Positions 169 through 60,501 of a stretch of 64,000 bases of DNA are shown here, in pieces. Numbering within the stretch: the stretch's first letter is position 1; each line of letters opens with the position of its first letter. A program made the position numbers and the translations under genes. Below the pieces are notes generated by a model, which was not told where the DNA came from, ran no database searches, and saw nothing but the letters and a program-made list of their open reading frames with translations. Source of the stretch: an uncultured Candidatus Saccharibacteria bacterium (lineage in GTDB: Bacteria > Patescibacteriota > Minisyncoccia > 2-02-FULL-40-12); the NCBI GenBank assembly GCA_964368135.1, contig CAYIZI010000001.1, positions 42,926-106,925 of the forward strand, in the 5' to 3' direction.

Positions 169-906
169 TTGAATGATATGGACGAAGTCATTATGGAAAT
201 CCGGGCCGGAACCGGCGGTGAAGAAGCAGCCCTCTTTGCCTCTAATCTATTCAATATGTATAAAAAATACGCCCTTAAGCAGGGATGGAAATTTAACATT
301 CTTGATTATAGCCCCACTACTTTAGGCGGCTTCAGGCAGATTACTTTTGAAATAGCCGGGCCAGAGGTGTTAAAAAAACTTGCTCGGGAAGCCGGAGTCC
401 ACCGGGTTCAGCGGATCCCTAAAACCGAAAAATCGGGGCGGGTTCACACCTCCACGGCCACGGTGGCCGTCCTGCCTAAAGTAAAAGAAACCGATGTTAA
501 AATAAATCCAAACGACTTAGAGGTCTCTTTCTTCCGTTCATCCGGGCCAGGCGGCCAAAATGTCCAAAAAGTTGAAACCGCCGTCCGGATTAGACATAAA
601 CCGACCGGTATTGTAGTATCCTCTCAAGAAGAACGTTCCCAGCAAAGAAACCGGGATAAAGCCCTGGAAATTCTAAGGTCCAAGCTATGGCAGGCCCGGC
701 AGGAAAAGCAAAGCGGCGAGATAACCGAAGAAAGAAGAAAACAGATCGGGCAAGCCCAAAGGGCGGAAAAAATAAGAACCTATAATTTTCCTCAAGACCG
801 AGTGACTGACCACCGAGTTAAAAAGAGCTGGGGCAATTTAGAAGGAATAATGGATGGTGAATTAGACAAGATCGTTGAAGTTCTTTCAAAAAAGAGTAAT
901 AAATAA
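169..906 (+). CDS. prfA: Peptide chain release factor 1-like protein lacking N-terminal domain 1 (RF domains 2-4 only)
   Basis: GGQ motif (SGPGGQNVQK), an RF1-type PxT tripeptide (RIPKTEKSGR) and strong similarity to RF1 domains 2-4. The frame is closed by TAG at 97-99, so only TTG169 or ATG178 can start it, giving ~245 aa against ~360 for canonical RF1. Confidence 0.8.
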   Translation: MNDMDEVIMEIRAGTGGEEAALFASNLFNMYKKYALKQGWKFNILDYSPTTLGGFRQITFEIAGPEVLKKLAREAGVHRVQRIPKTEKSGRVHTSTATVAVLPKVKETDVKINPNDLEVSFFRSSGPGGQNVQKVETAVRIRHKPTGIVVSSQEERSQQRNRDKALEILRSKLWQARQEKQSGEITEERRKQIGQAQRAEKIRTYNFPQDRVTDHRVKKSWGNLEGIMDGELDKIVEVLSKKSNK

Positions 907-953
907 CACCAAATATACGAATGTATCCCTATCTGCGAATCTTCGTAAATTGA

Positions 954-1003
954 TCGTCGAAGGTTCCGCCGATTAGCGAAGCTAATCGTAGCGGAATCGC
1001 TGT
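954..1003 (+). other. Conserved ~50-nt hairpin-containing motif, copy 1 (second copy at 60408-60456)
   Basis: TCGTCGAAGGTTCCGCC - GATTAGC-GAA-GCTAATC - GTAGCGGAATCGCTGT. Both flanks are identical in copy 2, but the internal hairpin differs there (CCCGAC-GTAA-GTCGGG) while still pairing. Confidence 0.4.
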
Positions 1004-1026: not shown

Positions 1027-1675
1027 GAGATATATGGCCGAAGAACAGCAAAACCAAGGAATGAGAGCTTTGATCCCAGAATCAAGACAATCCGAGTTAA
1101 AGCCAGAGCCGCCTCAACAACCCCCCCAATTACCTGGTCCAGTTTTTGAACCAAAGCCGGGTTGGGGAGGAAAATTCTCAAATTGGTGGAAAAAGAATTT
1201 CATCAAAGTGGCTCTGCCGATAATCATAGCGGCGGTTATAGTAGCAGTAACTATCTTTCTTAGAACCAGGCAAGAACCGGAACAAGAATCCAAGACCCAA
1301 GTTCCCGGAGCTACCGACCAAATTAGGACTGAAGAACAAGTAATCGTTGAAGAAATAACCACTGAAGAAGGCCGGGTTGAAAGCATTTACCGGGCTGCCG
1401 CCCAAAAAGGTGAAGGCACCACTCACTTAGCCAGAAAAGCTTTGAAAGAGTATCTAAAAGAAAACTCATCGGCTGGCGAAGGACTAAGGGCCGAGCATAA
1501 AATTTACATTGAGGACTACCTGAAAGACCAGCACGGAGAAAGATTTTTGGAAATAGGCGAAGAACTGGAATTCTCCTCCAACGACATTACTCAAGCGGTT
1601 GAAATGGCGAAAAGTTTATCGGAAAATCAATTATCCAACTTGAGCCAATTTGTTCCGCTGGTCTCGGGGTTATAG
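1025..1675 (+). CDS. Hypothetical membrane-anchored protein (Pro/Gln-rich N-terminus, single TM helix, Glu-rich C-terminal region)
   Basis: 216-aa ORF with hydrophobic segment VALPIIIAAVIVAVTIF. The alternative ATG at 1034 matches the start context of the preceding gene. No recognisable family. Confidence 0.5.
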   Translation: MRYMAEEQQNQGMRALIPESRQSELKPEPPQQPPQLPGPVFEPKPGWGGKFSNWWKKNFIKVALPIIIAAVIVAVTIFLRTRQEPEQESKTQVPGATDQIRTEEQVIVEEITTEEGRVESIYRAAAQKGEGTTHLARKALKEYLKENSSAGEGLRAEHKIYIEDYLKDQHGERFLEIGEELEFSSNDITQAVEMAKSLSENQLSNLSQFVPLVSGL

Positions 1676-1770
1676 CAAATTGATTTTTTGCTATAACGGG
1701 CATTTTAGGCGAGCGTACTGGCTCGCCGTAAAAATGCCCCGGGTTTCGCCCAGAAGGCGAAAATAAACTA

Positions 1771-4033: not shown

Positions 4034-5289
4034 TATCTAAAAATTGCTTTTAAAAAAATTCTGGTCACGTAAACGGCGCTGAAGATGCTGAAAATTGTGC
4101 CGATGGCCAAGGTTAAGGCAAAACCTTTGACCAGTGAGGCGGCAAAAATGTAAAGAATAACTGCGGCAATCAATGTGGTAATCTGCGAGTCGCGGATTGA
4201 AGACCAGGCCCGGTTAAAACCAATATCAATCGCCGCGGCCCTGTTTTTTCCATCTTTTAATTCTTCTTTAATCCTTGAAAAAATCAAAATGTTGCCGTCC
4301 ACGGCCATACCCAAAGACAAAATGAACCCGGCTATGCCAGATAGAGTCAGGGTCACCGGGATAAGTTTAAAAACAGCAAGAACCAAAACAGTATAAAAAG
4401 CCAGAGCAAAAACTGAAACCAGACCAAAACCGCGGTAAAAAATAATCATAAACAAAACCAAGGCCAATAAACCGTAAACTCCGGCCTGCAAACTTTTTTC
4501 CAAATATTCCCTCCCCAGAGTCGGCCCAATTGTCTGCTGGGAAATAAGACCTATCGGTACCGGCAAAGCTCCAGCTGAAAGCCGCTGAGCCAAGTTTCTA
4601 GCCTCATTAATGGTAAACCGCCCGCTAATTACGGCTTGGCCATTAGCTATCTCATCTTGAACTATGGGAGCGCTGATCGGCTGGCCATCAAGAAAAATAG
4701 CCAGGGGTTTGCCTAAATTTCTTTTTGTAATTTCAGAAAGCAATCTTGTTCCCTCGTCATTAAACTCTAAACTTACCAGCGGCAAATTTGTATTTGGGTC
4801 AAAAGCAAGAAAGGCTCGCTTTAATTGCTTACCGGTTAAGCCGGTTGAAACAAAGCCAGATGCCTCGGCCACAACCTCGCCTTCAGCTTCAATTTCCGGC
4901 AGTTCAATATTAACTAATTCTCTAAACTCCAAAAAAGGCGTTTCCCCTATCAGTTTAATCGCTTCGGCAGTATCTTTGACTTGAGGTAATTCAACAATCA
5001 ATCTATTCTCGCCGCTCACCTGAATATTTGGCTCAGCGACGCCAAAAATATTAACCCGCCTTTCGATAACGTCTCTAACCCCTGCCATTGAATCTTCTCT
5101 ATCGCCCGGCGGCACCGCGGTTAAATCAGCCTCATAAACTAAATGGGCCCCGCCAAGCAAATCAAGGCCTAATCGAAACGGTTTTTCCGGAATTTTTATG
5201 TTTAAAGAAACAAGCCACCCACTGGCCAGTTGCGGATAAACAAAAAAAGCCAGGAGAACTAAAACTATTGTTAAAATTAAAACCTTCAT
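4033..5289 (-). CDS. secD: Protein translocase subunit SecD
   Basis: N-terminal TM helix, the LGLDLLGGAHLVYEAD periplasmic-domain signature and a C-terminal 6-TM bundle. No secF is adjacent. Confidence 0.85.
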   Translation of the reverse strand: MKVLILTIVLVLLAFFVYPQLASGWLVSLNIKIPEKPFRLGLDLLGGAHLVYEADLTAVPPGDREDSMAGVRDVIERRVNIFGVAEPNIQVSGENRLIVELPQVKDTAEAIKLIGETPFLEFRELVNIELPEIEAEGEVVAEASGFVSTGLTGKQLKRAFLAFDPNTNLPLVSLEFNDEGTRLLSEITKRNLGKPLAIFLDGQPISAPIVQDEIANGQAVISGRFTINEARNLAQRLSAGALPVPIGLISQQTIGPTLGREYLEKSLQAGVYGLLALVLFMIIFYRGFGLVSVFALAFYTVLVLAVFKLIPVTLTLSGIAGFILSLGMAVDGNILIFSRIKEELKDGKNRAAAIDIGFNRAWSSIRDSQITTLIAAVILYIFAASLVKGFALTLAIGTIFSIFSAVYVTRIFLKAIFR

Positions 5290-6164
5290 AAATTCAGAAA
5301 TACTTTCACTTTTTTTTCTACGACTTCTTGCATTTTTTCAACCGCTTCTTCTAAGAACTTGTAAGGCGTTGTTTCAGCCGGAGCTTCTTTTAACTTCTCG
5401 TCTAATCCTTTACGATAAGCCACTCTGACTTCGGTGTTTATATGAATATTAATGACGCCGTTTTCAATAGCTTTTTTAAAATCTTTATCGTCCAAACCAG
5501 AACCGCCGTGTAAGACAAGAAAAGTTTGGGGCACGGCCTCGTTTATTTTTCTAAGCAAAGAGAAATCTAATTTTTCTTCTTGTTTGGTGACTACGCCGTG
5601 AATATTGCCGAAAACCACGGCTAATCGGTCAACCCCGGTTTTTTCAACGAACTCCTTAGCTTCCTCGGGTTTAGTAAAATCTTCTGATTTTATCGCAATT
5701 GTTTCCTGAAGTTTTGACTCCCCTTTTAAATAACCCAACTCGCCCTCAACGGTAATTCGTCCATTTTTGGATTTGGCATAATCTCTAACCCGGTGTGCCA
5801 CTTTTATATTTTCTTCAAATGGCAAAGATGAGGAATCAATCAGTACGGTGTCATAACCAGCGTCCAGGGCCTCTTTGCAGGATTCAAAGCTTTTATGGTG
5901 GTCAGCGTTTAAAAAAATAGCTAAGTTAGTGTCTGACTTCCAAGCATCAACCAATTTTCTGGCTTCTTTATAGCCCAAAAACTTCGCCTCGCCCTCGCTT
6001 GTACCGACCATTAAAGCATACTGATCGTAGGGTAAATTATAAAAATCCAAGACCTTCTTAAATCCCAAAACAATGGCCTTCAATTGTTCCGCCGACGCAA
6101 AATTAAAATGCGGGACAGCAAAATGTTTTTCCTTGGCAATTTTTAAATAATCATTTAAATTCAT
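5286..6164 (-). CDS. fba: Class II fructose-bisphosphate aldolase family protein
   Basis: KHFAVPHFNF ... LVLHGGSGL ... INIHINTE motifs of class II FBA/tagatose-bisphosphate aldolases. Confidence 0.8.
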   Translation of the reverse strand: MNLNDYLKIAKEKHFAVPHFNFASAEQLKAIVLGFKKVLDFYNLPYDQYALMVGTSEGEAKFLGYKEARKLVDAWKSDTNLAIFLNADHHKSFESCKEALDAGYDTVLIDSSSLPFEENIKVAHRVRDYAKSKNGRITVEGELGYLKGESKLQETIAIKSEDFTKPEEAKEFVEKTGVDRLAVVFGNIHGVVTKQEEKLDFSLLRKINEAVPQTFLVLHGGSGLDDKDFKKAIENGVINIHINTEVRVAYRKGLDEKLKEAPAETTPYKFLEEAVEKMQEVVEKKVKVFLNL

Positions 6165-7441
6165 TAAAGTTCAATATATCCCTTTATGATATTGTCTTCA
6201 ATCAGTTCATTCATTTTCTCGCGGCCCAAATACTCAATAAAAATCTTGTTCCAAAGCGCTTCCTCTTGATGGTATAAATATTTAACTTCTTCTTTTTTGA
6301 CCAAAGTCATTACCAAATCAATCAAATCAAAACTAACCAGCTCATCACCGAAAAAGTCGCCGACAAAATCCAGTTCTTTCCATAAAAAACCAGAACCAAG
6401 TTTGCCTAAGCTTTCCTCGGCTTTAAACCAATGCTCTGCCTCCGGATTAACATGCGGTTCAAAAAGCCGGAAATCATTTTCGTCATCCTTAGCTAAATAT
6501 CTTTGAACAATTCGCCAATTTAATTTTCCCTTATCCGACAAAGGCCCTTCTAAAATATCTCCGCGAAGAAGCGATTTTAACCTCCCAACGAAATCTGACC
6601 CTGTTGAAAAACGCCTGAATAATTTTGAGTAAAACGGAACTTCGTTAAGATAATGGAGAAGTAAAGTAAAGATTCTTAAGATTTCGCCGGGCGTATCCAG
6701 TTTAAGAGGAATTATAAAAATTATTCCGAGTTCTTTAAGATGGCTCACATTATGATATTTCTTTTCCAGAAACTTTCCTACCCCGTAGGGTCGCGAAGCG
6801 ACTCCTTCGGGGTCGGCCACGCCCAACCACTTCTCTTCCAAAACCTTTAATTGTATCGGCCGTTCTTCAAAATCTTCGGGCTTTAAATTATCGTAGGCCT
6901 CGTCAAAAAACTTGTGCATCCACTCGGTATTTTGGGTGAATCGCAAAGCCGCAAAAACCGATTCAAGGGATTCTTTGTCTATCAGTTCGCGAACATCTTT
7001 ATAGCCGAAAAAATCCAAAAGATTCTGCGGCGGATATTCCCCCAGGAGTTCAACTGCCTTATCTTTCTTTATAAAAAAGCCGGCTGTGCCCTCCGAAGCT
7101 TTAGCGAAGGAGGGTTCTTTTACTAAATTAACAGCTACTTCACACATCTTGCCGCAAACCATAGAAATTTTACTTAAATCCGGCCTATCTAAAATCTCAA
7201 AAAGCTCTTTATCTAAATGAATGAGTCTTGCCTGCAAAGCATCGCGGACTTTCTTCGCCCCGGCCTCTTTTGATAAACCCAATTCATCCAAAGTCCGATT
7301 AACCAATAAATCATTCTCCTCAACGATTTTCTCAATCACCCCCCTTTTCCCGGTAATTGAAGACATTTTTTGTTCCAAATCCAAAAGCACCTCCGGCCTT
7401 ACTCGTAAAATTTTTGCTAATCGATTAAACGGATCAAGCAT
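6164..7441 (-). CDS. Hypothetical soluble protein (425 aa), translationally coupled to fba
   Basis: Long ORF with protein-like composition. Its stop overlaps the fba start. I could not recognise a family-specific motif. Confidence 0.5.
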   Translation of the reverse strand: MLDPFNRLAKILRVRPEVLLDLEQKMSSITGKRGVIEKIVEENDLLVNRTLDELGLSKEAGAKKVRDALQARLIHLDKELFEILDRPDLSKISMVCGKMCEVAVNLVKEPSFAKASEGTAGFFIKKDKAVELLGEYPPQNLLDFFGYKDVRELIDKESLESVFAALRFTQNTEWMHKFFDEAYDNLKPEDFEERPIQLKVLEEKWLGVADPEGVASRPYGVGKFLEKKYHNVSHLKELGIIFIIPLKLDTPGEILRIFTLLLHYLNEVPFYSKLFRRFSTGSDFVGRLKSLLRGDILEGPLSDKGKLNWRIVQRYLAKDDENDFRLFEPHVNPEAEHWFKAEESLGKLGSGFLWKELDFVGDFFGDELVSFDLIDLVMTLVKKEEVKYLYHQEEALWNKIFIEYLGREKMNELIEDNIIKGYIEL

Positions 7442-7482
7442 GAAACCAGTATAAAATATTTGGTATTAAATATAAAGAAAAT

Positions 7483-7511
7483 GGCGGGAACTCTGCAAAA
7501 GAATTCCCGCC
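7483..7511 (-). terminator. Intrinsic terminator downstream of the sigma-factor gene
   Basis: GGCGGGAACTC-TGCAAAA-GAATTCCCGCC stem-loop. On the minus strand it is followed by a T-rich tract. Confidence 0.5.
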
Positions 7512-7512
7512 T

Positions 7513-8193
7513 TTAACTATCTAAAAGTTTGATCCGAATCTTGTTGATGGCTTTGGTGTGAAGTTGCCGGACTTTGCTCTCAACGACCCCGAGAACCTGT
7601 CCGATCTGCTTAAAGGTGGCATCTTCGAAGTAATAAAGATGCACCACAATTCTTTCTTGCCGAGACAGCGTTGCAATTACATTCCTGAGACGCTTTTGGG
7701 TTTCTTTTCTTTCATATATTTTTTCTGGCGACTCAGGTTGGGGCGGGACAACTTCATCCGGCAACATCGCCGTTTCACCATTCAAACCGGCTATTGATTC
7801 CATGGCTCTGATCCGCCAAATCGTTCGCCTTATGCCTTTCTTCCAGCCGAGTCGAGCAGCTAACTCGGCATAAGAAGGTCCTTCTCCCAGTTCGGCTCGC
7901 AAGGATTCTTCAGCCTCCAAAAGCCGCCGCCTTTGTTTACGTATGGACCGCGGCCAAGCATCATGACGCATACCGTCCATCATCGCCCCGCGAATCCGTT
8001 TTGCAGCAAAAGTCTTGAGCTTGATGCCGCGGCTTTCATCAAATCGGCTGAGAGCATCAATCAAACCGATTACGCCGTATTGAACAAGGTCGTTCGCCTC
8101 AACGCTGGACGGCAGTCCTTTTGCCATATTCCAGGCAATCTGCTTAATAAGTGGAAGGGTCTCAACAATTTTCGAAGAATGATCTTCTGTCAA
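7513..8193 (-). CDS. RNA polymerase sigma factor, sigma-70 family group 3 (FliA/WhiG/SigB-like)
   Basis: The region 2 motif LVQYGVIGLIDALSRFD and the region 4 HTH LSRQERIVVHLYYFEDATFKQIGQVLGVVESKVRQLH. Visibly more GC-rich than neighbouring genes. Confidence 0.75.
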   Translation of the reverse strand: MTEDHSSKIVETLPLIKQIAWNMAKGLPSSVEANDLVQYGVIGLIDALSRFDESRGIKLKTFAAKRIRGAMMDGMRHDAWPRSIRKQRRRLLEAEESLRAELGEGPSYAELAARLGWKKGIRRTIWRIRAMESIAGLNGETAMLPDEVVPPQPESPEKIYERKETQKRLRNVIATLSRQERIVVHLYYFEDATFKQIGQVLGVVESKVRQLHTKAINKIRIKLLDS

Positions 8194-8361
8194 AGTACAT
8201 CACCTCCTAACCGTTAAACCTACTCTATACCTATCAAAAAATTTCAACTTCTACCTGATAGAGATTGATTCCGGAAAAGCTGACTCTGAATTCACCTTGT
8301 ATACTTCACCTCTTTTCCAATCAAAATATATTACTTTTAAAATAAAGCGGCAAGTTAAAAT

Positions 8362-8388
8362 AAAAAAATGGCGAGGAATACTCGCCCC
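8362..8388 (-). terminator. Intrinsic terminator downstream of the PfkB-kinase gene
   Basis: On the minus strand GGCGAG-TATTC-CTCGCC is followed by TTTTTTT. Confidence 0.5.
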
Positions 8389-8413
8389 CACACTATTTCA
8401 AAGTTAGTCAAGA

Positions 8414-9463
8414 TTACAAAACTTCAACCTCCACCAGCGGCCACGGACCAAAGTCGCCTTTGTGAAGAATCCCGGCTTTGGGACCGTATTGAGCCACTAC
8501 CGAAGAAGCATTAGCTGTGGCGAATTGGATTGATTTAGTGATATCGCCATTAGATAAAATGTATTGAGCAGTAAAACCTGAAACAAAAGCGTCGCCGGCG
8601 CCGGTGCGTTCAACTTTCGGCGAATCCGGTGTCCCAGCCCGATAAATATTTTTCTTATCTGAAACCAAAACTCCTTTTGGCCCGAGCGTCAAAACCACAA
8701 TCCCCTTCACCAGCTTATCCAATTCTTTTAAAACATCTTCTTTGGTCATTCCTCCATTAGAGTTTGACTGGTCATTGGGATTTGTAATTTGGGATTTTAG
8801 CAAGCTTTTTGCTTCTTCCAAATTGACGCTGAAAATATCAACCTCCGTCAGATAAGGTCTTAAATTCTCTAACCCATTAGCTATCTCTTTTCCGCCAGGA
8901 TTAAAAGCAATTTTAAAATTCCTGGTACTAATATATTCAAATGCTTTTTGTAATAAATCCAAGTTCCCGCCCAGACTGCCTAAAAAAAACCACTTGGCTT
9001 TTAATTTTTTCCATTTAATTTCCTGAAGATTAAGATGTTGACCCTCGCCTTTGTAGCTTAAAATAGTTCGTTCAGCATTTGGATGGACTAAGATAACCGA
9101 GTAAGCGGTGTAATCATCTTTATGAGTCACAAAAAATAGCTTAACTCTTTCTCGTTTTAACTCTTTAATCACCTCTTTTCCGTTAAAATCATTGCCAACC
9201 ATACTGACACAGCCGGTCTTAAGGCCTTGCCTGGCAAAAGTTACGGCTGTATTGGTTGCTCCACCGCCGGTGGTAAAAACAACCTCTCTTATTTCAATCT
9301 TCGCGCCCAAAGGAAAACACTGCTCCACACCGGTCGGCGAATCAGCCCGGCCTTCACTTGCACGCAAGTGAGGGCCGTGCTTGCGGATTTCAAAACCCTC
9401 GCTTTTCAAAAAGACATCGCGGGTAGCCGAACCAATCGTAATAATATCTAATATACTAAACAT
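8414..9463 (-). CDS. PfkB-family carbohydrate/nucleoside kinase (ribokinase-like)
   Basis: Begins MFSILDIITIGSATRDVF and ends with the GAGDAFVSGF anion-hole/ATP motif characteristic of the PfkB family. Confidence 0.75.
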   Translation of the reverse strand: MFSILDIITIGSATRDVFLKSEGFEIRKHGPHLRASEGRADSPTGVEQCFPLGAKIEIREVVFTTGGGATNTAVTFARQGLKTGCVSMVGNDFNGKEVIKELKRERVKLFFVTHKDDYTAYSVILVHPNAERTILSYKGEGQHLNLQEIKWKKLKAKWFFLGSLGGNLDLLQKAFEYISTRNFKIAFNPGGKEIANGLENLRPYLTEVDIFSVNLEEAKSLLKSQITNPNDQSNSNGGMTKEDVLKELDKLVKGIVVLTLGPKGVLVSDKKNIYRAGTPDSPKVERTGAGDAFVSGFTAQYILSNGDITKSIQFATANASSVVAQYGPKAGILHKGDFGPWPLVEVEVL

Positions 9464-10091
9464 TGCTCGTCGTTAATTCTTTTAATGCCTCTCCAATATT
9501 ATCGCTCTTAAAAATATAGCTTCCGACTGCTGCCCGGCTAACCCCGACAGCTTCAACCAACTTTACTATTTCGGGTTTAATTCCGCCATCAACCTGAATT
9601 ACCTTATTTGGATATTGGCTTTGGAAATTCTTGATTTTCTCCAAAACTTCTGGCAAAAACGGCGAACCGTAAAAACCAGGGTCTACAGTCATGAACTGGA
9701 CTAAATCAATCCGATCTGTATAAGGTTCCGATACTATCCAGTTTGTTTGGGGATTAAAAACAAGGCCAATCTCTTTACCATTGGTGCTTAATTCATTTAT
9801 AACGGCATCAATCTCGGCGGTACTCTCCCAATGAATTAGAAACCTTATGGCTTTTGTTTTTAGCCAGCGGCCGATCTGGCCCTCCGGATTATTAACCATC
9901 AAATGAACTTCAAAGTTAAGTTTTGTGTTTATTTTTTGCAATTCCTCATAGCCGCCGATAGTTTTATTCGGCACAAATGCACCATCGGCAATATCTAAGT
10001 GGACTAAATCAGTATGAGGCTCTACCGCGCGAATCATTGTTTCAAATTCTTCTGGCGTTTTAGCGAGGATGGCAGGAATAATTTTTATCAT
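9456..10091 (-). CDS. rpe: Ribulose-phosphate 3-epimerase
   Basis: LHLDIADGAFVPN, HLMV and MTVDPGF...VDGGI motifs. Confidence 0.85.
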   Translation of the reverse strand: MIKIIPAILAKTPEEFETMIRAVEPHTDLVHLDIADGAFVPNKTIGGYEELQKINTKLNFEVHLMVNNPEGQIGRWLKTKAIRFLIHWESTAEIDAVINELSTNGKEIGLVFNPQTNWIVSEPYTDRIDLVQFMTVDPGFYGSPFLPEVLEKIKNFQSQYPNKVIQVDGGIKPEIVKLVEAVGVSRAAVGSYIFKSDNIGEALKELTTSNV

Positions 10092-11053
10092 ATCAAATTC
10101 GGCGGTGTTTTCCCTTCCAGTGCCTCAATTATATTTTTCGCGGTCAGTTCGGCCATCTTATTTCTTGTTTCTTCGGTGGCCGAAGCAATGTGGGGAGTCA
10201 AAATTATGTTGTTTAATCTTAACAGCTCGGGCTCCACTTTAGGCTCGTTTTCAAAAACATCAATCGCCGCTCCGCGAATCCAGCCATCGCTCAAAGCCCT
10301 GGCTAAAGCTTTTTCATCTATCACCGGCCCTCGGGAAGTATTTACTAAATAAGACGTTCTCTTCATTGACTTTAACCGGTTCTCATTGATTAAGTGGCGA
10401 GTTGATTCAAGAAGCGGAACGTGCAAAGAAACATAATCGCATTGGGGCAGTAGATTATCAATATTATTAAAAAAACTGGCCCCAAATTCTTCTTCAAACT
10501 TCTCGTCCTGTTTTACGTCAGTGTATAAAACTTTCATTCCAAAACCTTTGACCGCATGATAAGCAACCCGCGAACCGATTCGGCCAAGCCCAACCACGCC
10601 CAAATTTTTACCAGACAAATCACTGCCGAGCATTAGCATCGGCCCCCAGGCCTGATACAATCCGGCTCGGGTAAATTTATCGGCTTCGGCAATGCGATGG
10701 CTTATTGCCAACATCAAAGCAAAGGTGTGCTCGGCTACGGTATCGGTCAAGACGCCGGGCGTATTAGTAACCATTATGTTTCTTGTTTTGGCCGCTTCTA
10801 AATCAATATTGTCAAAACCAACCGCCATATTGGCGATTATTTTCAGACTCGGCAAGCCGGCATCCATAACTTCTCCATCAATCTGGTCGGTTAAAACAGA
10901 AAGTAAAGCATCAGCCCCTTTAATGCCAACTAAAATTTCCTCTTTGTCTGCCGGTCGATCCCTTGCCTGTTCGTTAACTAAAATCTCATAGCCCTTGCCG
11001 CGCAGCATTTCCACTCCTGCCTCCGGAATTGGTCTGGTAATAAATATTTTCAT
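10088..11053 (-). CDS. D-isomer-specific 2-hydroxyacid dehydrogenase family protein (glyoxylate/hydroxypyruvate reductase or PGDH-like)
   Basis: NAD-binding GKNLGVVGLGRIGSRVA motif and the catalytic region ending ...TPHIASAT. Confidence 0.75.
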   Translation of the reverse strand: MKIFITRPIPEAGVEMLRGKGYEILVNEQARDRPADKEEILVGIKGADALLSVLTDQIDGEVMDAGLPSLKIIANMAVGFDNIDLEAAKTRNIMVTNTPGVLTDTVAEHTFALMLAISHRIAEADKFTRAGLYQAWGPMLMLGSDLSGKNLGVVGLGRIGSRVAYHAVKGFGMKVLYTDVKQDEKFEEEFGASFFNNIDNLLPQCDYVSLHVPLLESTRHLINENRLKSMKRTSYLVNTSRGPVIDEKALARALSDGWIRGAAIDVFENEPKVEPELLRLNNIILTPHIASATEETRNKMAELTAKNIIEALEGKTPPNLI

Positions 11054-11493
11054 AATTGATCAATCTTATTGATCCTTCTGACGTGTCTCTCTTCGCCGGT
11101 AAATTTGGTCTTGAACCAAATCTCAAGCGCTTTTTTAGCCGCTTCTTCATTTACAAAAAAAGTGCCAAGCGATAATACATTAGCGTTATTATGCTCGCGA
11201 GCCAGCTTAATGATTTCTTCTGAACCTCCCTCATATACGGCAGCCCTTACTCCTCTATACCGATTAGCCACCATTGCCTCGCCCTGGCCGGACATACCCA
11301 AAACTATAGCTTCCGAGTTTTCCGGGTCTTGAGAAACTTTTTGGGCAGCTTTGTGAACAAAATCCGGATAATCATCGTCTTTATCATAAACGAAAGCACC
11401 CATGTCTACATATGGATAACCCCACTCGGTCAACCATTCTTTAATTTTCTCTTTAAGTTTAAAACCGCGATGATCGGTAGCTAGGTATATCAT
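11050..11493 (-). CDS. rpiB: Ribose-5-phosphate isomerase B (RpiB/LacA/LacB family)
   Basis: MIYLATDHRGFKLKEKI...AIVLGMSGQGEAMVANRYRGVRAA. Confidence 0.85.
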   Translation of the reverse strand: MIYLATDHRGFKLKEKIKEWLTEWGYPYVDMGAFVYDKDDDYPDFVHKAAQKVSQDPENSEAIVLGMSGQGEAMVANRYRGVRAAVYEGGSEEIIKLAREHNNANVLSLGTFFVNEEAAKKALEIWFKTKFTGEERHVRRINKIDQL

Positions 11494-12497
11494 CTTAGTC
11501 TATTAAGATAATTAACCGCTTGGAGCAGGGCGCAAGTACCCTGTCCGGCGGCAATGACAATCTGCTTAAACGGCACATCAGTCACGTCGCCGGCGGCAAA
11601 AAGACCCGGAATATTAGTTTCACAGTTTTTGGAAACCACAATTTCGCCGAAATTATTCTTCTCGACGCCTTCGGACACAAGACCGCTATTTGGCACCATG
11701 CCGATATGAATAAAAATACCGTCAACTTTCAGCTCCGACGTTTCAGTCGGAGCCCCGACTTCCGACGTCGGGGTTCCTTTATTTATTTGATACATTAATC
11801 CCCTAACAAAACCATCGCCAAAAATACTGGTGGTTTTAGCATTATAAATCACCTCCACATTTTTCTTGTTCAATAAATTATCTATCAAAACCTGGTCGCC
11901 CTTGAAAGCCGGGTTTTTGTTTATAACATAAACTTTTGAAGCAATATCAGCCATCATTATGCCAGCTTCCAAAGCCGAGTTGCCGCCGCCGATTACAGCC
12001 ACAGTTTTCCCCGGAAACAGGGGGCCGTCGCAAACCGTACAATAACTCACCCCTTTGTTTCTTAATTCTTTCTCGCCCGGGACATTCAACTCTCGGGGGT
12101 GGACGCCGGTGGTTACTATCACGGTTTTAGCGATATAATCGCATTTTGGGGCGCTATTTCCATCTTCTGATATCTTCTCGGCGGCCATAGTCGTTTCTTT
12201 TCCGGTCTTGGCGGTTATACAAAAAGTGCCGTCTTCCTGTTTTGAAATTTTTTCAACTTCAACTCCGATTTCCGGCTCAACGCCGTAGTCGGACAGATGC
12301 TTTTTGAATTTATCGGCCAATTCAATGCCGTCGGTATCAGGCACACCCGGATAATTATCTACTTCGCCGGAAGTAGCCACCTCCCCGCCAAAATCCTTGG
12401 AAATTATTTTGAAACTCAAGTTCCGCCGCACCGCATAAATGGCGGCAGCCGTTGCGGCCGCCGAACCACCAATAATAATTAAATCGTATTTATTCAT
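11490..12497 (-). CDS. trxB: Thioredoxin-disulfide reductase
   Basis: FAD motif DLIIIGGSAAATAAAIYA, redox-active CTVCDG and NADPH motif VAVIGGGNSALE. The start is taken at MNKYDL (12497), because the upstream extension is hydrophobic junk. Confidence 0.8.
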   Translation of the reverse strand: MNKYDLIIIGGSAAATAAAIYAVRRNLSFKIISKDFGGEVATSGEVDNYPGVPDTDGIELADKFKKHLSDYGVEPEIGVEVEKISKQEDGTFCITAKTGKETTMAAEKISEDGNSAPKCDYIAKTVIVTTGVHPRELNVPGEKELRNKGVSYCTVCDGPLFPGKTVAVIGGGNSALEAGIMMADIASKVYVINKNPAFKGDQVLIDNLLNKKNVEVIYNAKTTSIFGDGFVRGLMYQINKGTPTSEVGAPTETSELKVDGIFIHIGMVPNSGLVSEGVEKNNFGEIVVSKNCETNIPGLFAAGDVTDVPFKQIVIAAGQGTCALLQAVNYLNRLR

Positions 12498-23717: not shown

Positions 23718-23990
23718 TTACGAATGCAGGTAATCAAAGGCTTCTTCAATAGAATCAAAAACAGGAGAAATATTCTTCTTGGCTTTATAATCTTTTCTGG
23801 CCTGACCAATAAGCTTTTCTAATTCCGGAGTCATTTTAGGCATAACTGAAAAGTAAAGTCTTCGGCTTCTAATAAACTGTTTAAGGTTTGCATTTATAAT
23901 TGTACTTAAATTAAGACCTAATTCTTTGGCTAATTTTTGAGCATTCTCTTTAACTTCCTTATCTGCTTTTATATTGATCATCGTCTTCAT
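23718..23990 (-). CDS. relB: Type II antitoxin, RelB/DinJ family
   Basis: MKTMINIKADKEVKENAQKLAKELGLNLSTIINANLKQFI is a ribbon-helix-helix DinJ-like N-terminus. Start taken at 23990. Confidence 0.7.
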   Translation of the reverse strand: MKTMINIKADKEVKENAQKLAKELGLNLSTIINANLKQFIRSRRLYFSVMPKMTPELEKLIGQARKDYKAKKNISPVFDSIEEAFDYLHS

Positions 23991-24078
23991 CCCGTTAGAA
24001 ATTTTACAGACCGTCAACCACTCTAAGCTGGTAGCTAAACTTATAAAACTTCATATCACTTAATTTGTGTTTATTCCC

Positions 24079-24105
24079 GTTAGGGCTAACTTCTAACGGG
24101 ATTCA
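24079..24105. promoter_or_regulatory. Hairpin TCCCGTTAG-GGCTAACTT-CTAACGGGA, with a third CCCGTTAG half-site at 23995-24002. Candidate operator of the relBE promoter or topA terminator
   Basis: 9-bp perfect stem read directly. The same octamer recurs just upstream of the antitoxin start. Confidence 0.35.
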
Positions 24106-24136
24106 TATCTAAAGTATATACAACGGATATTTAATG

Positions 24137-59463: not shown

Positions 59464-60501
59464 CTATTTGTTTTGATTCTTGAAAGACGGATAGCGGTCT
59501 GGGTCAATGGTTCGGCTGAAGCAAGTTCTTTCAGCGTCATGGAGCCAGCTTTCTTCAGTAATGCCAGGGTAAGGATAATAAAGCTCGCGGGGGGCCAAAG
59601 GCACTGGTTTTGCTCCGCTCTTTTCCGGCTCCTGCTTGTTTGAGGTCTTAAAAGTGGCGCAAAGCTCAAACTGCAAAGTACCGCGAACTCGGTATTCATA
59701 CGAGTCCCCTGTTTCCGGGTCAGCCGGCGGGATGAAGCCACGGATATCGTCGCGAAGCTGATCAAGATTTTGAGGCAATGTTTCTTTGGCCTGCCAAAAG
59801 TTTATAATTTCATTCTGAATCGCCTGTAGATCCGAAATTCTCCGCTCATCAAATCTCTTCAAGCGCTGGGCAATTGGCGAACCGGCCGTAACAAAGCCGA
59901 TGACGATGAAAAAAATGCCAGCCAGGGAAACCAACCAAACGAACCATCTCATTTTCGGGTCTTTAGCGGCCGGAACTTTCCGCCGGATATTCCACAAGTA
60001 ATAGGTAAACACCGCTAAAGCAATAACCAGAACGGTCAAAATCTTAAGCACAAATTGAGTGGTTAAATCTCCATTAAGATAGCGATAAATAAGAGCGATT
60101 AAATCAGCGACAATAATGATGGCGGCAACAAAAAGCGTAAAATGCAAAAGCCATTTCCTGACTTTTAATTCTTTTTTCTCGGGATTCCGTTCAAGGTCTT
60201 TCTGAAGATAGGAGTTATACCAAAGATACAAAGGGAAAACCACGATCAGGGTAGCCAAAGGCCATCTGATGGCCTGGCGGTTATAAAAATCGTAGCTTAA
60301 AACATCGGGGAAATATATATCAATCAAACCGAAAATTAAAACACCAAAAGAAATTACCAGGACATAAAGGCCGATAATGACCAAGAGTTGGCCAAACACG
60401 TCTTTGCTCGTCGAAGGTTCCGCCCCCGACGTAAGTCGGGGTTGCGGAATCGCTGTCGGCCCGGTTTTTGCAGAATCAGTCATTGTTTTAAATTCTACCA
60501 A
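59464..60501 (-). CDS. Hypothetical integral membrane protein (5-6 TM helices, C-terminal soluble domain; DUF5671-like)
   Basis: The true start is uncertain. The annotated N-terminal ~30 aa overlap the 60408-60456 motif, and a GTG just downstream (MFGQLLVIIG...) would start at the first TM helix. Confidence 0.45.
   Translation of the reverse strand: MVEFKTMTDSAKTGPTAIPQPRLTSGAEPSTSKDVFGQLLVIIGLYVLVISFGVLIFGLIDIYFPDVLSYDFYNRQAIRWPLATLIVVFPLYLWYNSYLQKDLERNPEKKELKVRKWLLHFTLFVAAIIIVADLIALIYRYLNGDLTTQFVLKILTVLVIALAVFTYYLWNIRRKVPAAKDPKMRWFVWLVSLAGIFFIVIGFVTAGSPIAQRLKRFDERRISDLQAIQNEIINFWQAKETLPQNLDQLRDDIRGFIPPADPETGDSYEYRVRGTLQFELCATFKTSNKQEPEKSGAKPVPLAPRELYYPYPGITEESWLHDAERTCFSRTIDPDRYPSFKNQNK
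60408..60456 (+). other. Conserved ~50-nt hairpin-containing motif, copy 2
   Basis: TCGTCGAAGGTTCCGCC - CCCGAC-GTAA-GTCGGGG - TTGCGGAATCGCTGT. The flanks are identical to copy 1 at 954-1003, and the central hairpin differs but is self-complementary. Confidence 0.4.

Follow-up and report, generated by a model that had tools for sequence, protein, structure and literature searches.

Two hairpin motifs in a Saccharibacteria contig probably belong to a family of short mobile DNA elements in Patescibacteria

A motif of about 50 nucleotides occurs twice in a contig of an uncultured Candidatus Saccharibacteria bacterium, with the same ends and with cores that have no sequence in common and yet both fold. 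This raises the question of what kind of sequence keeps its ends and its ability to pair when everything in between is exchanged. The window is the whole stretch of 64,000 nucleotides that was analysed, and is itself part of a 126.9-kb Hainich contig. An initial annotation had listed three kinds of candidate: a small structured RNA or riboregulator, a recombination site with the architecture of integron attC sites, and a REP-like element. Of these the REP-like element comes closest, and neither the riboregulator nor the attC-like site is supported. The two motifs are probably copies of one family of non-autonomous mobile DNA hairpins of 41-71 bp in Patescibacteria (CPR bacteria). This hairpin family is apparently undescribed so far: a full-text literature search (of incomplete coverage) on repeats in CPR bacteria and Parcubacteria, and on the sequence itself, found no description of it.

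Both motifs are present where they had been reported, with the correction that the element extends 2 nt further at its 5' end. Copy 1 occupies positions 952..1003 on the + strand (52 nt) and is matched by a covariance model of the family with 72 bits (E 6e-15); copy 2 occupies 60406..60456 on the same strand (51 nt, 64.4 bits). In copy 1, the conserved 5' tail GATCGTCGAA (952..961, +; the family consensus is GCTCGTCGAA) is followed by a hairpin at 962..998 (+), which is seen in RNA and DNA folds and in covariation, and by the conserved 3' tail GCTGT at 999..1003 (+). The basal stem of this hairpin, GGTTCCGC/GCGGAATC, pairs 962-969 with 991-998 (+ strand, 8 bp including a G-T at 963/997). Above it, a variable stem pairs 970-977 with 981-988 (+) around the loop GAA, and a 2-nt bulge, TA, lies at 989-990. 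The hairpin of copy 2 spans 60416..60451 (+), as seen in its folds, with the basal stem at 60416-60423 and 60444-60451, the variable stem CCCCGAC/GTCGGGG at 60424-60430 and 60435-60441 (+), the loop GTAA, and a TT bulge at 60442-60443. Element by element, copy 1 reads GATCGTCGAA GGTTCCGC C GATTAGC GAA GCTAATC G TA GCGGAATC GCTGT and copy 2 reads GCTCGTCGAA GGTTCCGC CCCCGAC GTAA GTCGGGG TT GCGGAATC GCTGT. The ends are common to both, G[C/A]TCGTCGAA-GGTTCCGC ... GCGGAATC-GCTGT, and the cores are unrelated sequences, each forming a perfect hairpin with a 2-nt bulge (TA or TT) on the 3' arm. The pattern TCGAAGGTTCCGCC-N(10-30)-GCGGAATCG has exactly 2 matches in the window and 0 in 100 dinucleotide shuffles. 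The flanks of the two copies are unrelated, and the likeness ends at the borders of the element. Mismatch searches and the covariance model found no third copy in the window, and the model found no further one in ~147 kb of the window's contig. Both copies have the same orientation on a replichore of uniformly negative GC skew, and opposite orientations relative to the local genes and their transcription.

Copy 1 is intergenic and upstream of a + strand gene, as had been described. It lies in a spacer of 127 nt between the gene of peptide chain release factor 1 (RF1; 193..906, +; a short form of 237 aa) and a gene for a hypothetical membrane protein of 213 aa (1034..1675, +; the exact product is on record), which starts 30 nt past the element. 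In three relatives (L129, L131 and L132 among the collected loci) the order rpmE-prfA-hypothetical-rplY is kept, and copy 1 is missing from all three RF1 spacers: one is 38 nt long, in one the genes overlap, and one is 157 nt long. The RF1 product itself has PCRF and RF-1 domains. Bacterial RF1 is usually ~355 aa long; with 240-242 aa in the relatives, the short form is a conserved feature of this lineage.

The same neighbourhood holds other repeated sequences. Between the convergent 213-aa gene and rplY, a region of ~97 nt (window 1665-1765) contains a long hairpin, GGGCATTTTAGGCGAGC-GTACTG-GCTCGCCGTAAAAATGCCC. In the sister genome L129 this region is 94% identical, against 75-80% for its surroundings, and it is found also at L025:53-148, L091:3477-3525 and in L052; it could represent a third repeat or else a small RNA. 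The insertion in the RF1 spacer of L132 is bounded by inverted repeats of the type seen in a MITE-like element of ~125 nt at 23976-24112 of the window. This element has the terminal inverted repeats ATCCCGTTAGAA...TTCTAACGGGAT, is 89% identical to the copy of another genome, and has sites at L067:9050-9173 and L132:~990-1110.

Copy 2 is, as the initial annotation had stated, on the strand opposite to its gene, but it does not merely overlap an N-terminus. It lies inside conserved coding sequence, between codons 9 and 27 of a gene for a DUF5671 membrane protein (59464..60483, -; 339 aa; from Pfam and alignment). When this protein is aligned with its 13 closest homologues (64-75% identity), a conserved N-terminus, M.D..KTGP followed by KDVFGQLL, is interrupted in the window protein alone, where 17 extra residues, TAIPQPRLTSGAEPSTS, stand between KTGP and KD. 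Copy 2 is an exact 17-codon in-frame insertion, missing from 13 of the 13 homologues. The annotation had taken the start of this gene to be probably mis-called; because the copy is inserted in frame within a conserved N-terminus, the ATG at 60483 is rightly called.

The reverse case is found elsewhere in the window. Positions 4363-12163 are syntenic with the contig CAYHZG010000011 (L014) at 75-80% nucleotide identity, and in the gene of a D-2-hydroxyacid dehydrogenase (Pfam 2-Hacid_dh) the sister genome (L014, L054) carries an in-frame copy of 54 nt. The window's version of the gene is uninterrupted, and the alignment shows a single clean 54-nt gap between GAAGAAT and TTGGGGCC at ~10485. The empty target site is at 10476..10501 (-), with the insertion point at ~10485/10486. 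Further pairs of filled and empty sites were found by joining the flanks of every copy and searching the joined sequence against the collected loci. With these there are about ten orthologous pairs, in the 2-hydroxyacid dehydrogenase gene, in cysS, between rplX and rplE, upstream of rplP, and at about six other places. In cysS an insertion of 48 nt adds 16 residues between DFVLWKFS and TADEPSWDSPWG, at a point where the uninterrupted spacing presumably matches that of E. coli CysRS. The hairpin element is thus shown to be a discrete insertion, present or absent at orthologous sites. The initial annotation had raised the question of whether loci carrying the motif are variable, and between relatives they are, with both window copies missing from the orthologous sites. 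Empty orthologous sites in relatives point to mobility rather than to a conserved regulatory site. Across the filled and empty pairs the position of the junction is ambiguous by at most 1 nt, a T, so there is no target-site duplication. Insertion is usually at T^(T)G: the last base of the left flank is T in 46 of 73 copies, and position +2 after the element is G in 48 of 73. Several copies are located in the loops of pre-existing terminator-like hairpins.

How far the family extends became visible in wider scans, which with the covariance model had been suggested in the initial annotation and which place the family in Patescibacteria MAGs and groundwater metagenomes. A first scan, with exact flanks and one genome per species, matched 26 loci. 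Fifteen of them had the hairpin together with the extended flanks CTCG.../...CTGT, and all 15 were in Patescibacteria MAGs; the remaining genome matches lacked the hairpin and look like chance. At least 8 copies are found in one assembly, JBBTUA01 (H51-bin010_1), and other MAGs with the element are labelled Yanofskybacteria, Parcubacteria and Saccharibacteria. A second scan went through metagenomes with the inner basal stem left free and TCGTCGAA fixed. It gave 92 loci, many from Hainich groundwater, with 76 non-redundant hairpin copies and 18 chance matches. These 76 copies, of 41-71 nt, all come from Patescibacteria MAGs or groundwater metagenome contigs; the lengths in the scans themselves were 45-71 nt, and the 41-nt variant was found by the covariance model. 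Among viral contigs there was a single chance match only. A peptide probe made from translated copies, which had to be concatenated since a query of at least 40 aa was needed, gave one weak match.

Within the family the foot of the hairpin is constant, GCTCGTCGAA-GGTTC ... GAATC-GCTGT, an apparent invariance that is partly imposed by the search, because both patterns fixed 21-22 bases of the foot. The bases CTCG were free in the first scan, yet are conserved among the Patescibacteria matches, and the 3' CTGT, also free in that scan, was found in 14 of the 15 true copies. Of 73 copies, 46 have the G and 61 the C in the two positions preceding TCGTCG. Above the foot the helix can have any sequence and length provided that pairing holds, usually with a 2-nt bulge on the 3' arm. 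Past its first 5 pairs the basal stem covaries as well, with such arms as CCGC/GCGG, CCAAT/ATTGG, AAGTCGGCC/GCCGACT and ATCCGCC/GGCGGAG.

The reading of constant ends around a variable but always pairing core holds up well. Covariation was computed on a model-based alignment of 68 distinct sequences, in which 97.3% of the cells are paired and 149 double-sided changes are found, against 35.5 in shuffles (a number as high was reached by 0 of 500 shuffles). If the 3' partner is shifted by one to three columns, pairing falls to 30-52%. The two window copies also fold well beyond their shuffles, as RNA with z about -3.3, and as DNA with z from -4.0 to -4.9, equally on both strands. G-U pairs in the variable helices are few, 13 of 702 in the + orientation and 5 of 682 in the - orientation, and the second basal pair (G963-U997 in copy 1) is an invariant G-U in the + orientation, in 68 of the 68 distinct sequences. 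A variable helix that is almost purely Watson-Crick fits a DNA palindrome better than an RNA structure, and the hairpin element is read here as a palindrome at the DNA level that has a polarity, not as a dedicated RNA. With Rfam 15 there was no match at gathering score in the window, and around copy 1 none overlapping the element at E <= 10; a tRNA and tmRNA search was negative. The polarity can be seen in relation to the genes: in 36 of 49 loci (p = 0.0014) the local genes run opposite to the GCTCG... strand, so that the mRNA carries the ACAGCG...CGACGAGC strand in 73% of copies (36 vs 13, p = 0.0014). Orientation is only weakly associated with the sign of the GC skew (31 vs 18), and the association with gene orientation (36 vs 13) is the stronger one. 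This bias could reflect a constraint at the RNA level.

Copies inside genes were called deep when an open frame of at least 200 nt continued on each side. All 12 of the deep copies have lengths divisible by 3, against 29 of the 64 others (Fisher p = 2.5e-4), and among them are those in cysS, in the 2-hydroxyacid dehydrogenase gene and in the window's DUF5671 gene. In-ORF copies use all three reading phases and both orientations. The three phases of the ACAGCG... strand read TAIPQ..AEPSTS, SDSA..GGTFDE and QRFQ..NLRRA, and the opposite strand can be read as LVEGSA..GIAV. On average 4.66 of the 6 frames of an element are free of stops, compared with 3.17 in shuffles. Since the in-gene copies keep the frame and are stop-free, they persist as short peptide insertions, copy 2 among them, and the deep ones are read through and not removed; translation through such a copy would be expected to give a peptide such as KTGPTAIPQPRLTSGAEPSTSK. 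Splicing or translational bypass of in-gene copies was rejected, as every deep copy is a multiple of 3 in length and stop-free. The idea that the motif is itself a coding sequence was rejected too: the window copies are 1 nt apart in length, and their frames differ. The end of a gene can also be affected. In nusA (L004:1-200 / L097:13437-13640) a 52-nt copy replaces the end of the gene and supplies the last 11 codons and the stop; the frame enters the element (...EEMKAEEADLVEGSADSRSES), and the stop codon lies within it.

Start codons are another frequent location. About 18 of 73 copies end at most 2 bases from the start codon of a gene encoded by the opposite strand (among others tpiA, rnc, rplE and rplP), and empty alleles show that the element had landed between the Shine-Dalgarno sequence and the ATG. 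Filled alleles of this kind, at L060:~1169, L075:~4562 and L111:~385, were compared with empty alleles in L046, L116 and L004; the sites are between rplX and rplE, upstream of rplP, and upstream of a gene for a membrane protein. At these sites the Shine-Dalgarno sequence is displaced by ~50 nt, and the element has no obvious replacement ribosome-binding site.

Several observations bear on how recently and how often the element has moved. On the contig JBBTUA010000003, identical copies of 51 nt and 52 nt are found at different, unrelated loci, and the same or closely related hairpin subtypes recur across different genomes; the hairpin type of copy 2, for instance, recurs at an unrelated locus in L005 with a 1-nt difference in the loop. 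Across 536 kb the covariance model added only two copies to those that have exact flanks, and degenerate copies are almost absent. Some orthologous sites hold different subtypes, as in L033 compared with L085, and in L020 compared with L071, where an A-T pair is changed to G-C with compensation. Three subtypes share one insertion position (GACGACCT^CGGAGG) in another, larger structured repeat, which suggests repeated site-specific insertion.

A second repeat family, 123-144 nt in length, was seen at L046:1390-1512 and ~9311-9484, L116:~5376-5507, L014:~2222-2365, and in L079, L095, L102 and L110. Its fold is strongly supported, with 46 predicted pairs, 14 of them with compensatory changes, and with G-U pairs present; its conserved loops are CGCUGGA and GAGAAUGAGCGAAC, and nothing in Rfam matches it. 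Where the hairpin element is nested in this repeat, it occupies one fixed junction. This second repeat is present in the sister genome and missing at ~10095-10113 of the window, so it also behaves as an insertion.

The best reading of the hairpin element is a non-autonomous hairpin transposable element, with REP elements and Rickettsia palindromic elements (RPE) as its closest relatives in kind. A structure-specific enzyme probably mobilises it in trans, acting on its folded single strand of DNA, as we infer from the insertion without duplication, the hairpin with its short conserved tails and bulge, the T found at each junction and the affinity that it shows for hairpin loops. Such a mechanism is modelled on the biochemistry of IS200/IS605 and REP/RAYT systems (PMC8266576, PMC3479197, PMC6006769). 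The foot would be the site of recognition and cleavage by the trans-acting enzyme on the folded strand, and the most plausible candidates are enzymes of the HUH/Y1 type, such as the TnpA of IS200/IS605 or the REP-associated transposases. The distal helix would need only to fold, which would explain why it drifts with compensation when the foot is invariant. Both window copies have the look of passengers that are neutral or nearly so: copy 1 makes an intergenic spacer longer, and copy 2 lengthens a short N-terminal tail by 17 residues.

In the fully annotated window and in ~80 kb of its contig there is no gene for a transposase, an integrase or an HUH protein. A tblastn search with two Y1 transposases (IS200 TnpA among them) against 876 kb of loci matched only L090, where a Y1 transposase gene lies ~200 nt from a copy. 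The element there, at L090:4735-5245 on the minus strand, is IS200-like, is ~510 bp long and has the end hairpins CTGCGGGCGGCAGCCCGCAG and CTACGGGCGGAAGCCCGTAG; its transposase of 144 aa has the HUH motif HIHIL and the catalytic Tyr in GYFVSTVG. Adjoining it is a MITE of 298 nt (L090:4424-4721 / L072:871-1168) with the inverted repeats TAGGACTTAC and a nested hairpin element of 71 nt. The IS200-like tnpA was judged not to be the mobiliser and its adjacency to be incidental, as the end hairpins of the IS are unrelated to the hairpin element and the MITE in which the L090 copy is nested occurs without the IS in L072.

Some points count against a mobile hairpin. The element has one hairpin and no GTAG, unlike known Y1 systems, and the invariance of the foot together with the scarcity of decayed copies could instead come from purifying selection for a function in the host. 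An element that spread by transposition might have been domesticated, that is, kept for a useful folded RNA or DNA, possibly as an mRNA stabiliser, as an RNase processing site in operons, as a translation-initiation context, or as a signal for DNA uptake or protein binding. This is unlikely, though it has several observations on its side: the constant foot and the near absence of degenerate copies, the abutting of about 18 of 73 copies on start codons (rplE, rplP, tpiA and rnc included), and the bias of 36 to 13 in orientation relative to genes. Orthologous copies are also ~96-98% identical between flanks of ~70-77% identity (L109/L023; L052/L093), and REP elements offer a precedent of exaptation (PMC8266576, PMC3479197). 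High identity can, however, come from repeated site-specific insertion, which is supported by the different subtypes at one site. Close relatives have empty orthologous sites, so no locus depends on the element; both orientations and all reading phases occur; and an element between Shine-Dalgarno sequence and ATG offers no obvious new ribosome-binding site. That the element is itself a cis-acting structured RNA, a riboregulator or a small RNA gene is less probable by a good margin. The strong covariation, the stable folds, the invariant G-U of the second basal pair and the position of copy 1, which precedes a same-strand gene by 30 nt, would all fit such an RNA. Against this stand neighbouring genes that are unrelated, the lack of an Rfam match even at E <= 10, copies within ORFs with lengths held to multiples of 3, in all phases and both orientations, window copies that would be transcribed in opposite senses, almost no wobble pairs in the variable helix, and orthologous loci that do without the element. 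Group II intron domain V, a mimic of the T-arm, Y RNA and ribozymes were also considered and rejected: their conserved nucleotides differ, the element is found in ORFs, and there is no Rfam match.

A site like the attC of integrons, a folded single strand with conserved ends and variable terminal structure that serves a tyrosine recombinase, has a similar architecture, in that the base is conserved, one arm carries bulges and the tip varies, spanning 13 to about 45 nt, and the 3' junction of copy 1 reads GTTGAAT, which fits GTTRRRY. This match is not conserved, as the right flanks vary. The boxes R''/R' (RYYYAAC ... GTTRRRY) are missing, RYYYAAC entirely so; the hairpin element ends in GCTCGTCGAAGGTTC and GAATCGCTGT, and the bases after GCTGT vary. 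The window has no integrase and no cassette array, and copies are solitary, 59 kb apart in the window and some of them inside housekeeping or essential genes, all of which makes an attC-like site highly improbable. The two copies were also considered as attL and attR of an island of 59 kb, and this was rejected, since their cores differ and each was inserted independently, at a site whose orthologue is empty. The least probable explanation, to which we give hardly any weight, is chance similarity or a recent local duplication with no wider significance, a case the initial annotation had tied to the existence of only two copies. Two is indeed the count for the window and ~147 kb of its contig, but not one of 100 shuffles had even one match, and the 76 non-redundant copies in other genomes and metagenomes mean that the family is not limited to these two.

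Beyond the preferred reading of a mobile hairpin, a bolder one can be put forward tentatively, with the odds rather against it: the family might be a new class of mobile DNA, with a single hairpin of 41-71 bp, inserting without duplication and recognised by an enzyme at its constant foot, or else a domesticated signal for operon expression. Were the new class to prove true, it might be the smallest self-contained transposition substrate known. Insertions are known in essential genes, in other repeats and exactly at start codons. With a constant foot and a free stem, the element offers a precisely delimited substrate in the search for the enzyme behind it, possibly a new nuclease or transposase that is structure-specific and acts on single-strand DNA.

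Genomes of Patescibacteria are tiny and streamlined, and the group is not known for repeat families. An element that spreads between lineages and into essential genes would mean that selfish DNA persists even in streamlined genomes. It is worth noting that the element is also a source of annotation artefacts, in the form of odd N- or C-terminal extensions, insertions of 16-23 residues (TAIPQ...AEPSTS) and displaced ribosome-binding sites. Which copies a genome has can also serve as a fine-scale marker of strains in groundwater CPR populations.

Among known systems, REP and REPIN sequences with their RAYT/TnpA-REP enzymes (PMC8266576, PMC3479197, PMC3116915) are short, multi-copy palindromic DNA like the hairpin element. 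A REP, too, is one imperfect hairpin that carries a bulge and is preceded by a conserved single-stranded 5' tail. REPs fall into sequence classes that differ by compensatory changes and have no target-site duplication described, and their mobilisation is presumed to take place in trans, on folded single-stranded DNA (PMC8266576, PMC3479197, PMC3116915). The hairpin element is flanked by CT dinucleotides (GCTCG..., ...CGCTGT), and CT is the dinucleotide cleaved by RAYT. In REPs and REPtrons a conserved tetranucleotide GTAG stands directly 5' of the palindrome (PMC8266576); this head is missing in the hairpin element, where the 5' tail is GCTCGTCGAA and the other strand begins with ACAGC, and GTAG occurs by chance only, in subtypes with a TA bulge. 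A tnpA-REP gene (Y1/HUH) is typically flanked by REPs; none was found in the window and ~80 kb of its contig, the genomes being partial. REPs are extragenic and species-specific; the hairpin element has at least 12 copies deep in ORFs, its foot is common to Patescibacteria MAGs of different lineage labels, and its distal stem varies much more in sequence and length.

Bacterial MITEs (PMC10969869, PMC3184786) are likewise small, non-autonomous, multi-copy and palindromic, and are mostly intergenic and sometimes fused in frame to ORFs, as is the hairpin element. They carry the terminal inverted repeats of a parent IS and have target-site duplications (PMC10969869, PMC3184786), and here neither a duplication nor a parent IS was found in the collected loci. 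The hairpin element is shorter than typical MITEs, is a hairpin over its entire length, and has asymmetric tails of 10 nt and 5 nt.

With IS200/IS605 elements and their miniature derivatives (PMC6006769, PMC8266576) the hairpin element shares the precise insertion without duplication, the need for a hairpin with short flanking recognition sequences, the insertion beside a short preferred sequence and an affinity for DNA prone to become single-stranded, hairpin loops for example. The same groundwater community also has a member of this Y1 transposase family, in L090, with an IS whose end hairpins are unrelated to the hairpin element. IS200/IS605 elements need two different end hairpins, left and right, and the hairpin element has one; its target preference, T^(T)G, is weak, with a left T in 63% and no strict tetranucleotide.

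The Rickettsia palindromic elements (PMC10969869) belong to hosts of another phylum. From their descriptions they are set apart by a size of ~100-150 bp and a conserved peptide per family, as against 41-71 bp in the hairpin element, which has no single conserved peptide because all three phases and both orientations are used. Their mobilising enzyme is, as here, yet to be found. They too are selfish palindromic repeats in reduced genomes, lying in frame in unrelated protein-coding genes and tolerated there as extra peptide segments (PMC10969869), just as the hairpin element is.
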